Shown: positions 17,984 through 20,900, numbered from the stretch's first letter. The stretch: DNA of 64,000 nt from Myxococcota bacterium (GCA_964201005.1 CAXNCS010000006.1:8143-72142), one strand, 5' to 3'. The notes: generated by a model from the sequence alone, not told the origin. Program-made: numbers and translations.

Positions 17984-20900
17984 CTAGGGCTTGTAGCCGT
18001 TGCCAGTGCCGGGCTGACCGTACAGGCCGTTGCTGAACTCGAGCTTGTACTTGCCGCACACCGTGGGCGGGGCATTGCGGTACACCTTTACGTAGAACCA
18101 CGCCGAGTTGTCCTGGCACTGCGTGTAGTAGAAGCCCGACGGGATGCACACGCCGCCGGAGTTGAAGTTCATGCAGTACGGTCCGCCGTTGCCTGGGCTC
18201 ATGTTCCAGCTGTAGTTGCTCTGGTCAAAGTAGTTGCCGGTCTGGCATGGGCACTCGCCCCATTCGGACCAGTAGTCGGAGTACGGGCCAGGGCCAGCCG
18301 ATCCCTTAAAGTTAGTGAACCAGTTAAAGTCCGTGCTGTTGCAGCAGACCGCATTGGTGCCACCCGCCGGGCAGCTGCCGCGCCAGACGTCAAAGGCCAC
18401 GCCGCCGGGATTCTTGGTCATCAGCACGCGCATGTTGAACTTGTCGCACGCGCCTGAGCCGCCGTCGCCCGTGTCCGCGGCATAGACAGAGAACCAGTCG
18501 ACGTCCGTGCCCATCACGATGCCTTCGATACCCGCGGTCTTGCCGCTGTCATACAGGGCGGTGTCCATCACCGTGGCCTGGCTGCACGCGTCATTGGGCT
18601 CGTTGTTGTCATTGCCGTTGCACTCGCAGCCGTCGCTCCACGATCCGTTGATGTCGTAGAAGCCCGTCGCGCAACCCGTGACCTTGCAGGAACCCGCGAC
18701 GCACTTGTACAGGGCGTTGGTGTTGGTCGGGCAGTTCTCGCTCGAATTCTCATCCGTGACACTGTTGCAGTTGTCGTCGACGTTGTTGCACGACTCCAGC
18801 CCGCCCGGCTTGACGCTGGCATTGACGTCATTGCAGTCGCCGCCGCCCTTGCTGCAGGTCGGAGCGGTGCCCACGGTCACCAAGCCGGCATCGCAGTAGT
18901 CGTCGTTGTCGTCGTCACAGCCTTCGTCAATGCTACTGTTGCAGTTGTTGTCGTTGCCGTCGCAGAGCTCGGGCTTGCCGGGGGTGCAGGTCGCGCAGGC
19001 GTCGTTGCAGTCGCCGGTGGTCTTGGCGGTGAACAGCGAGTTGGTGCGCGCGCAGACGTAGGCAGCGGTGGTGGATGGAGTAACGTCCGCCCACTTGGCG
19101 TTGCCCTTCATCAGCACGTAGTCCTCGTCATTGGCCACGCCGCCCGCGGTGCCGTCTTTGTAGAACACTTCGACTTCATTGAGCTGCCAGCCGCTGTACT
19201 GACTCGCCAAGTACGACTGGCAGGCCCCCGTGCCGCACGAGCCGACCGGGCACGAGTAGCTGTAGCCAAAGTACGTGTAGCCAGTCTTCATGCTCGAGTC
19301 GACGTAGAGGTCGTGGCCGCCGCCCCACGTCGGGCCGTAGCTCGGGTGGTTGTAGGTGCCGTAGCTCTGGCCGGCGCACTGACCGCCCCAGTTGGCCTTG
19401 TAGTTGTTCTTGAACGTGTACAACCAGGTGCCGCCCGGGCTGTAGTAGCTGCCGCCGCCGGCCCAGGTGGCGCTGTTGTAGCCGCCAAAGACGTTGCCAT
19501 TGGTCTCGCGCAGCACCACCAGCGTCTGGCTCTTGGAGTCGCACTTGTTGTGGAACGTATTGGAGTTAAACCCATCCTGCGTGCCGCGGTAGCACAGCGT
19601 CCACTTCTGGTTGGCGGTGCCGGCCCAAGTATTGAGCTGCTGCTGCTTGGCTTGGTCCAACACGGTCGTGCCGGTGAAGAACTCGCCCGCCGGTTCGCCC
19701 GTGTCCCAGTTGCTGTAGCTCATGCTGGCGCCATCGGCCCACACATACGTGTTCTCGACCGCTGCGTCGGACAAACCGAGCCAGACATTGCCCGTTACGC
19801 CCGCGGCGTTGGCCGTGTCGCGCACAAAGGTGTTGACGCCGCTGCTCTCAATGGTGGTCAGGTTGCCGCCCCAGCCCTTGCAATCCGCCTGCGCCTGCGC
19901 CCAGGTCGCCGGTGTCGACACCACCTTGTACTGCTTGGCCGACTCGCACAGGCACTGGCTAGAGCTGCTGCCCACGCCGTCCTGGTCGCCGTCGTAATAG
20001 AAGGTCGAGCAACCCTGCGAACCGGCTTCGTCGGTCTGGGCGTTGCAGTTGTTGTCCTGCCCGTCGCACACCTCGGTGCCGCCCGGATTGACCGTGGCCG
20101 CCGTGTCCTTGCAGTCGCCGCCGCCCTTGGGGCAACCGCCGGTCTCAATGGTGTAGCAGTACACCTGGTTGTTGTTGGCCGAGACGCAGTAGTCCTTGCC
20201 GTTGTACGCCATGTTGTTGATCTGCGGCGCGGTCTTGAACTGGCCCACGTAATTGCCGTTGGTCTTGTCGTAGTAGTACACGTTGCCGTCATAGCGCCCG
20301 ACAAACAGGTACTTGGATGTCACCGCCAAGCCGCCGTACAGCGTGGTGTTGCCGCCGCCGTTCAGGTTGATGGTCTTGATCTGCGCGCCGGTGGCCTTGT
20401 CGAGCACCCACACCGTCATGCCGTCGACGCGCATGGCGTAGACATACTGGTTGTCTGCCGCCACGCCGCCCGCAGTGGTGCCGATGTTGAACGACCACAG
20501 CTGGGTGCTGCCCATGTCCGACCACTTGCGAATGGTGCTGTAGCCCCAGTTCGCCGTGTAGTAGGTGCCGTCGGTGTCGCCCCACAGCTGCATGATCTCG
20601 CCCAGGCCGCTGCCAAACGAGCCCACCTGCTGGAAGTTCTTGTTGAAGCGGTAGATGGTGCCGCCGGCCCACTGCGGGTACCAGTACTCCTGGTACTTGG
20701 GCGAGTAGCCGCCGCCGTGCGAGTACGTCTCCATGGTGATGACATTGCCGATGTACGTGCCCGGATCCACCGCCGGCGAGCCCACCACGATCATGTCCTT
20801 GTCGCAGTAGCCGTCGCCGTCGTCGTCGCAGCCCTCGTCCGCCGACTTGTCGCAGTTGTTGTCCTTGCTGTCGCACATCTCGGACGCGCCGGGGTTGACC

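Follow-up and report, generated by a model that had tools for sequence, protein, structure and literature searches.

The 64,000-nucleotide stretch of DNA analysed here (GCA_964201005.1, CAXNCS010000006.1:8143-72142; its full length is called the window) encodes a giant, cysteine-rich lipoprotein of an uncultured freshwater Myxococcota bacterium, in which a TLDc domain is very likely nested inside a C-type lectin-like domain (CTLD). We propose that this CTLD has given up the Ca2+-dependent role of a lectin and would form a rigid pedestal with the TLDc domain projecting from its tip, and that the TLDc domain would be the head that contacts the ligand in a protein for adhesion or recognition outside the cell. 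The likeliest target would be a component of the surface or matrix of other cells. Taken as a whole, architecture and inferred function together, we regard this as the best explanation, with a probability of about 0.6. The function as pedestal and binding head, considered alone, is tentative and falls somewhat short of even odds.

A first-pass annotation, made from the sequence alone, had proposed the nesting at 19043-19930. The peptides that it quoted are present, but the unit lies on the minus strand and the proposed coordinates are 3 nucleotides off: CTLD[TLDc], running from QYKVV to YVCARTN, spans 19040-19933 (amino acids [aa] 5579-5876), and translation of the plus strand of 19043-19930 yields no sensible protein. 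Translation of the window places the unit within one uninterrupted open reading frame (ORF) at 17984-36667 on the minus strand, encoding 6,227 aa, 378 of which are cysteines.

Profile searches with Pfam models carry the case for two domains in one. On the intact segment, the TLD profile (PF07534) scores 81.1 bits (E=1.2e-22, against a cutoff of 24.5 bits) and is covered from position 5 to 167 of 170; on the insert alone, the match reaches E=2.4e-23. Judged by sequence, the match to a complete TLDc domain within the CTLD is far beyond chance. Lectin_C (PF00059) also matches the intact segment (37.1 bits, E=5.6e-9, cutoff 22.6 bits), covering only positions 2 to 73 of 107. When the insert was excised in silico, the Lectin_C score rose to 53.1 bits (E=6e-14) and coverage extended to positions 2 to 106 of 107, and therefore the third of the profile that the intact match lacks is provided by the C-terminal 31 residues of the unit. 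The split Lectin_C match flanking a TLD match, which the first-pass annotation had suggested looking for, was thus obtained, and the nesting that it proposed is borne out both by this arrangement and by its recurrence in independent relatives. Moreover, a phmmer search aligned the spliced CTLD end to end (query positions 1-8 to 108-115 of 117) with 12 uninterrupted CTLD repeats, representing eight distinct sequences from multi-CTLD proteins, with E values from 1e-19 to 1e-10.

All four segments of the unit are read from the minus strand. The N-terminal part of the CTLD (19682-19933; aa 5579-5662) contains beta1, alpha1 with cysteine C1, alpha2, the WLGLSD strand, and the start of the long loop as far as NWDTGEP-AGE. 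It is followed by the inserted TLDc module (19154-19681; aa 5663-5838; FFTGTTVL to EVEVFYKD), about 176 residues long, with a YGPTWGGGHD motif and four conserved cysteines; by a C-side linker (19133-19153; aa 5839-5845) that has the lowest confidence in the structural model; and by the C-terminal part of the CTLD (19040-19132; aa 5846-5876), which supplies NDEDY (beta3), KWAD (beta4), and AAYVCA (beta5, with cysteine C4).

Comparison with 27 uninterrupted relatives in a curated alignment, A6, located the point of insertion precisely. In these relatives the two parts of the CTLD are bridged by ...NW..GEPN-xx(x)-xEDY..., and the TLDc domain takes the place of the turn of 4 to 5 residues between the EPN position and beta3, in the long-loop region. 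That region is the Ca2+ and sugar site of canonical C-type lectins. The linkers around the insert are short, with three residues (AGE) on the N side and seven (GTAGGVA) on the C side. The insert starts with FFTGTTVLDQAKQQQLNTW and ends with EVEVFYKD, and the same end points delimit stand-alone or C-terminal TLDc modules in bacterial proteins (P0001, P0199, P0202, and P0203, and loci L004, L009, L034, and L043). Because the module ends are shared, the insertion is best described as a clean graft of a whole TLDc module.

Structure prediction is consistent with this description. The A6 alignment used for AlphaFold2 was limited to nested sequences and uninterrupted CTLDs because alignments mixing TLDc-only and CTLD-only sequences were misaligned: in every MAFFT mode tried, CTLD-only rows landed on TLDc columns, and three TLDc-only rows sufficed to displace the C-terminal half of the CTLD. 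In A6, the overlapping part of P0049 stood in for the relative L001. From A6, AlphaFold2 returned a mean predicted local distance difference test (pLDDT) score of 89.3 and a predicted template modeling (pTM) score of 0.74; from the single sequence, pLDDT was 34. Confidence in the N-terminal part of the CTLD is about 97 over the first 50 residues and declines to 79 to 90 in the long-loop region; the C-terminal part forms three strands at 94 to 95; and most blocks of the TLDc domain lie between 84 and 96. The score drops below 50 only at residues 263 to 267 of the unit, which correspond to the C-side linker.

A Foldseek comparison against the PDB gave the predicted TLDc domain target-normalized template modeling (TM) scores mostly of 0.7 to 0.8, with NCOA7 and zebrafish OXR2 at 0.75 to 0.83 and TBC1D24 at 0.68 to 0.72; entries 7obp, 8ar9, 4acj, and 7uzg_T matched with a probability of 1.00 and TM scores of 0.78 to 0.83. 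The N-terminal part was superposed on the CTLDs of collectin-11, CD23, mannose receptor carbohydrate-recognition domain 4 (CRD4), and tetranectin over 80 to 90 columns, with root mean square deviations of 1.2 to 2.0 Å. Sequence matches in the PDB likewise assign residues 2-83 to CTLDs and residues 106-228 to TLDc domains.

The same nesting was found in at least eight other sequences, at 37 to 94% identity, which answers the database search proposed by the first-pass annotation. L001 (JBIKTV010000026.1), from a Myxococcota metagenome-assembled genome (MAG) recovered from a lake metagenome, carries the same unit at 94% amino acid and 92.5% nucleotide identity. Further carriers, identified by phmmer and a metagenome scan, are L002 (59%), P0051 (41%), L003 (39%), P0055, P0063, L005, and the fragment P0184. 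These nested relatives surfaced only in exhaustive phmmer searches and contig scans; a word-based homologue search returned no matches for the spliced CTLD and only TLDc relatives for the whole unit. P0051, P0055, and P0063 are 5,400 to 6,500 aa long and collinear with the window protein, sharing 45 to 49% identity over the first 2,200 to 2,500 aa, so the four proteins form one giant-protein family. All of the nested carriers are in this Myxococcota family or are consistent with membership in it.

The unit is conserved and under purifying selection. Differences from L001 are spread over the unit and are mostly synonymous, and the ratio of nonsynonymous to synonymous substitution rates (dN/dS) is 0.09 for the N-terminal part of the CTLD, 0.12 for the TLDc domain, and 0.15 for the C-terminal part. 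The GC content of third codon positions is 0.91 in the insert, compared with a mean of 0.90 ± 0.03 for the gene. The codon usage of the insert thus equals that of the rest of the gene, and on the evidence of conservation and composition together a recent transfer is excluded. The CTLD[TLDc] unit does not stand alone: this protein family repeatedly places one domain within another.

Several relatives display further variants of such insertion. In P0063 (aa 4739-5165) and L005 (3001-4260), the TLDc domain within the CTLD is itself interrupted, after its first helix, by a beta-sandwich of about 125 aa, making three levels. The first CTLD of P0055 (aa ~3605-3860), which keeps QPD and WND, has a homologous sandwich of about 140 aa directly in the same loop. 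This beta-sandwich corresponds to no Pfam family. Also, a second TLDc domain with non-TLDc sequence on both sides occurs in P0051 (aa 5040-5400), P0055 (4402-4587), P0179, and P0198; in P0051, the stretch after it matches the C-terminal part of the InhA-like MAM jelly-roll (PF20773). No second TLDc unit of this kind is present in the window protein, where CTLD[TLDc] is the sole nested unit.

The first-pass annotation described TLDc and CTLD as mainly eukaryotic domains. For the two families as a whole this holds, yet the nearest relatives found for this TLDc domain (42 to 49% identity) have bacterial-type architectures or carry bacterial MAG names, ahead of the eukaryotic ones, which share about 30 to 40%. 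The subfamily groups with secreted TLDc proteins of corals, rotifers, and protists and with IFI44-like proteins. It has invariant or near-invariant polar residues without a counterpart in TLDc domains of the OXR1/NCOA7 type, namely, H128, H207 and D208 in YGPT[FW]GGGHD, and E255. Another TLDc protein, P0082 (4,500 aa), is a eukaryote-type type I membrane protein with a signal peptide, a C-terminal transmembrane helix, and an acidic tail. It contains the same propeller-repeat and TLDc modules, arranged in series and unnested, and this sharing hints at an exchange of modules between eukaryotes and Myxococcota.

The host CTLD departs from functional lectins in the residues of the lectin site. It has EPA, EDY, and WAD where lectins of the mannose-binding-protein type have EPN, E, and WND, and so the ligand set of Ca2+ site 2 and the sugar (EPN or QPD, Glu, WND) is incomplete. 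W[A/S/T]D replaces WND in all six TLDc-bearing CTLDs; among the 27 uninterrupted relatives, WND is found in 18 and EPN or QPD in 21. The cysteines are affected too: C1 (in ADCKGW) and C4 (in YVCA) are present, whereas Tyr (in EDY) stands at C2 and Pro (in WADVTP) at C3, which leaves the C1-C4 pair and removes C2-C3. The first-pass annotation had singled out the Tyr that replaces Cys in EDC. It is indeed there, but it is not special to this copy, since [E/Q/T]DY occurs in 14 of the 27 uninterrupted relatives, most of which have no or few cysteines (17 of the 27 have none at all). On these alignments, Tyr at this position is a trait of the clade and no argument against a CTLD fold.

The remainder of the giant ORF consists of Dicty_CTDC cysteine-rich repeats, about 29 MopE (PF11617) repeats, a SUEL lectin domain, six beta-propeller-like modules marked by SHGGGY..., and a C-terminal domain. 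A probable lipoprotein signal peptide, read by eye from the translation, occupies aa 27-56 (36500-36589, minus strand; MGPPRGLLGRRGLHLWAWLPLLAALMVSAC); its lipobox is V-S-A-C, and the lipidated cysteine is aa 56. The SUEL-type galactose/rhamnose-binding lectin domain (31076-31315, minus strand; aa 1785-1864) matches PF02140 over positions 1-80 of 80 with E=4.7e-14. This domain was overlooked by Pfam scans of long pieces, just as Lectin_C went unreported in the scan of the whole protein. The C-terminal domain (17987-18604, minus strand; aa 6022-6227; NEPNDAC...DVDWF...YVKVYR...) is conserved in P0051, P0055, P0063, and P0049 and is not matched by any Pfam family; on visual inspection, it looks like a domain of the pre-peptidase C-terminal type followed by a cysteine-rich region. 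Two further jelly-roll-like regions of the protein correspond to no Pfam family.

Directly upstream and on the same strand, at 37917-45094, are cdsA, uppS, lgt, lspA, a YceI-like gene, and dnaA, and thus the giant gene adjoins genes for lipoprotein maturation as well as dnaA, which is frequently located near the chromosomal origin. At 7168-9975 on the minus strand, a 935-aa protein fuses VKOR, DsbA-like thioredoxin, FGE-sulfatase-like, and AhpC/redoxin domains; the VKOR-DsbA fusion is a disulfide-forming machine, encoded about 8 kb from the 378-cysteine protein. Immediately downstream of the giant gene, a tRNA-Pro(TGG) gene (17697-17774, minus strand) sets the limit of the transcription unit; it is mentioned as context only. 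Three plus-strand ORFs just downstream (12556-17546; 804, 254, and 335 aa) had no Pfam match at E≤0.001. Taken together, the signal peptide and lipobox, the cysteines, the repeats, the SUEL domain, and the neighboring genes fit an exported, disulfide-rich surface or matrix protein.

Several lines of evidence lead us to favor a pedestal bearing a TLDc binding head. The Asn of WND is lost exactly where a TLDc domain is present, which argues for a CTLD that would no longer serve as a lectin. A role for the TLDc domain in binding is suggested because eukaryotic TLDc is described as a protein-protein interaction domain (PMC8608904) and because relatives reuse the CTLD loop for other cargo. An extracellular role would follow from the lipobox, the 378 cysteines, lgt and lspA upstream, the nearby VKOR-DsbA fusion, and the SUEL domain. 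Since the SUEL lectin, the propellers, and the cysteine-rich spacers belong to the same protein, the target would most likely lie on the surface or in the matrix of other cells.

Nevertheless, a number of observations weigh against this proposal. To our knowledge, no experiment or ligand has been reported for any extracellular or bacterial TLDc domain. The CTLD retains the Glu of EPx, the Glu of EDY, and the Asp of WxD, and the CTLD P0055b keeps EPN, so that a modified Ca2+ site may persist. The conserved His of FH..C and the His-Asp of GGGHD, which are specific to the subfamily, might just as well belong to a catalytic or metal site. Also, the contact between the two halves of the CTLD is inferred from pLDDT, pTM, and homology rather than from coordinates, and the uninterrupted CTLDs in the input alignment bias the model toward their reassembly.

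A broader alternative is that, in these giant Myxococcota proteins, the long loop of the CTLD and the loops of TLDc and MAM-like domains are general sockets for recursive grafting, up to three levels deep, and that the repeated and reciprocal nesting of CTLD and TLDc domains in bacteria and corals reflects an extracellular function common to this TLDc subfamily, whether the recognition of ligands or glycans or an as yet undiscovered activity at GGGHD. Within the giant-protein family, the same CTLD loop does appear to serve as a reusable insertion socket; the full proposal, with its common function, is rather unlikely. If it were true, it would provide a first handle on a role for TLDc outside V-ATPase regulation.

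It is unlikely that the insert is an enzyme or effector, whether redox, hydrolytic, or toxic, that the CTLD merely positions or targets. The subfamily-specific H128, H207, D208, and E255 would suit such an activity, a catalytic role was the original prediction for TLDc (PMC8608904), and many bacterial relatives carry TLDc at the C terminus, a position typical of effector domains. However, enzymatic activity is unconfirmed for any TLDc domain (PMC8608904), an internal domain tethered at both ends within a 6,227-aa lipoprotein would be an unusual format for a delivered toxin, and no immunity-like gene is evident beside the giant gene.

We consider it similarly improbable that the CTLD is still a carbohydrate-binding lectin whose sugar site the TLDc domain extends, gates, or makes specific. 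This idea draws on the position of the insert beside the primary sugar site, on the acidic residues retained there and the EPN of P0055b, on the SUEL lectin in the same protein, and on the reciprocal nesting of CTLD and TLDc in Porites corals, described below, which hints at a functional partnership. Nevertheless, the replacement of the WND Asn in six of six TLDc-bearing CTLDs, the replacement of the EPN Asn in the window, L001, P0051, and P0063, and the absence of the loop-bracing C2-C3 disulfide argue against an operational sugar site.

Two last explanations have next to no probability. The variable proteins of diversity-generating retroelements (DGRs) have a CLec fold that tolerates inserts, and the CTLD might be such a target; however, the window contains no second copy of 18991-19990, a segment that spans the CTLD unit, resembling a template repeat, only short matches to MopE repeats (a reverse transcriptase was not explicitly searched for), and the substitutions that separate the unit from that of L001 are mainly synonymous and scattered along it. 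An assembly chimera, a frameshift, or the decaying remnant of a disrupted CTLD has nothing in its favor beyond the oddity of the arrangement and is refuted by a single frame of 6,227 codons, identical junctions in independent assemblies from different samples, a dN/dS of about 0.1 for each piece, uniform codon usage, and a confident model.

Each of the two domains is familiar, but the literature that we searched has no precedent for an entire domain placed in the ligand-binding loop of a CTLD; it contained no mention of TLDc within a CTLD, of bacterial TLDc proteins, or of whole-domain inserts in the CTLD long loop. The first-pass annotation had likewise noted that it had not seen such an insertion described. 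The finding indicates that the CTLD long loop tolerates inserts of 140 to 300 residues and has been reused for different cargoes in this family, which is of use both to the engineering of protein scaffolds and to the annotation of domains. A split Lectin_C match of this kind easily escapes notice, as evidenced by its absence from the scan of the whole protein. It also places TLDc, a domain whose biochemical role is still debated, in an extracellular bacterial setting.

Comparison with known systems clarifies what is shared and what is not. With CTLDs of the PF00059 family, such as those of collectin-11, CD23, mannose receptor CRD4, and DEC-205, the window unit shares a fold supported at the level of sequence and predicted in structure, the pairing of the alpha1 and beta5 cysteines, WLGLSD, W..DG....Y.NW..GEP, and the W.D strand. 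Unlike canonical CTLDs, it houses a domain of 176 aa in its long loop, has EPA and WAD, lacks the C2-C3 disulfide (Tyr and Pro occupy these positions), and belongs to a giant bacterial lipoprotein. The insert resembles TLDc domains of the PF07534 family (NCOA7, OXR1/OXR2, TBC1D24, mEAK7, and IFI44-like proteins) in its fold and its 81-bit profile match. It differs from eukaryotic TLDc domains in being bacterial and predicted to be extracellular, in its four conserved cysteines and GGGHD, and in being tethered at both ends within another domain. In a bacterial lipoprotein with 378 cysteines, the V-ATPase is an unlikely partner, so another function for this TLDc domain must be sought.

Closer at hand are the bacterial TLDc modules on cysteine-rich secreted proteins (P0001, P0199, P0202 from a "Deltaproteobacteria bacterium," P0203, and P0164). 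These belong to the same clade, are 35 to 49% identical to the insert, and share its start, F.G[ST].[LV]L...Q.N.W.G, and its end,.[EL]V[WFY]...; their TLDc modules are terminal, whereas that of the window is internal and nested. A possible functional analogy, taken from general knowledge and implying no homology, is the alpha-I domain in the beta-propeller of integrins, where a whole globular domain emerges from a surface loop of the scaffold domain and forms an exposed head.

Finally, coral proteins of the genus Porites (XP_073249640.1, CAH3116550.1, and CAH3193303.1) contain the same two domain families, also fused by nesting. Their topology is reciprocal: in these eukaryotic gene models, the TLDc domain is the host, and one of its loops holds an entire CTLD that retains both EPN and WND. 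In Porites lutea (P0029/XP_073249640.1), P. lobata (P0315), and P. evermanni (P0313), the CTLD (Lectin_C positions 3-107 of 107) is located between FGGYTDIPW and FIFSLL of the TLDc domain, downstream of EGF repeats. The reciprocal nesting in corals, together with the TLDc and propeller modules shared with a eukaryote-type membrane protein, points to either module exchange between Myxococcota and eukaryotes or convergence.

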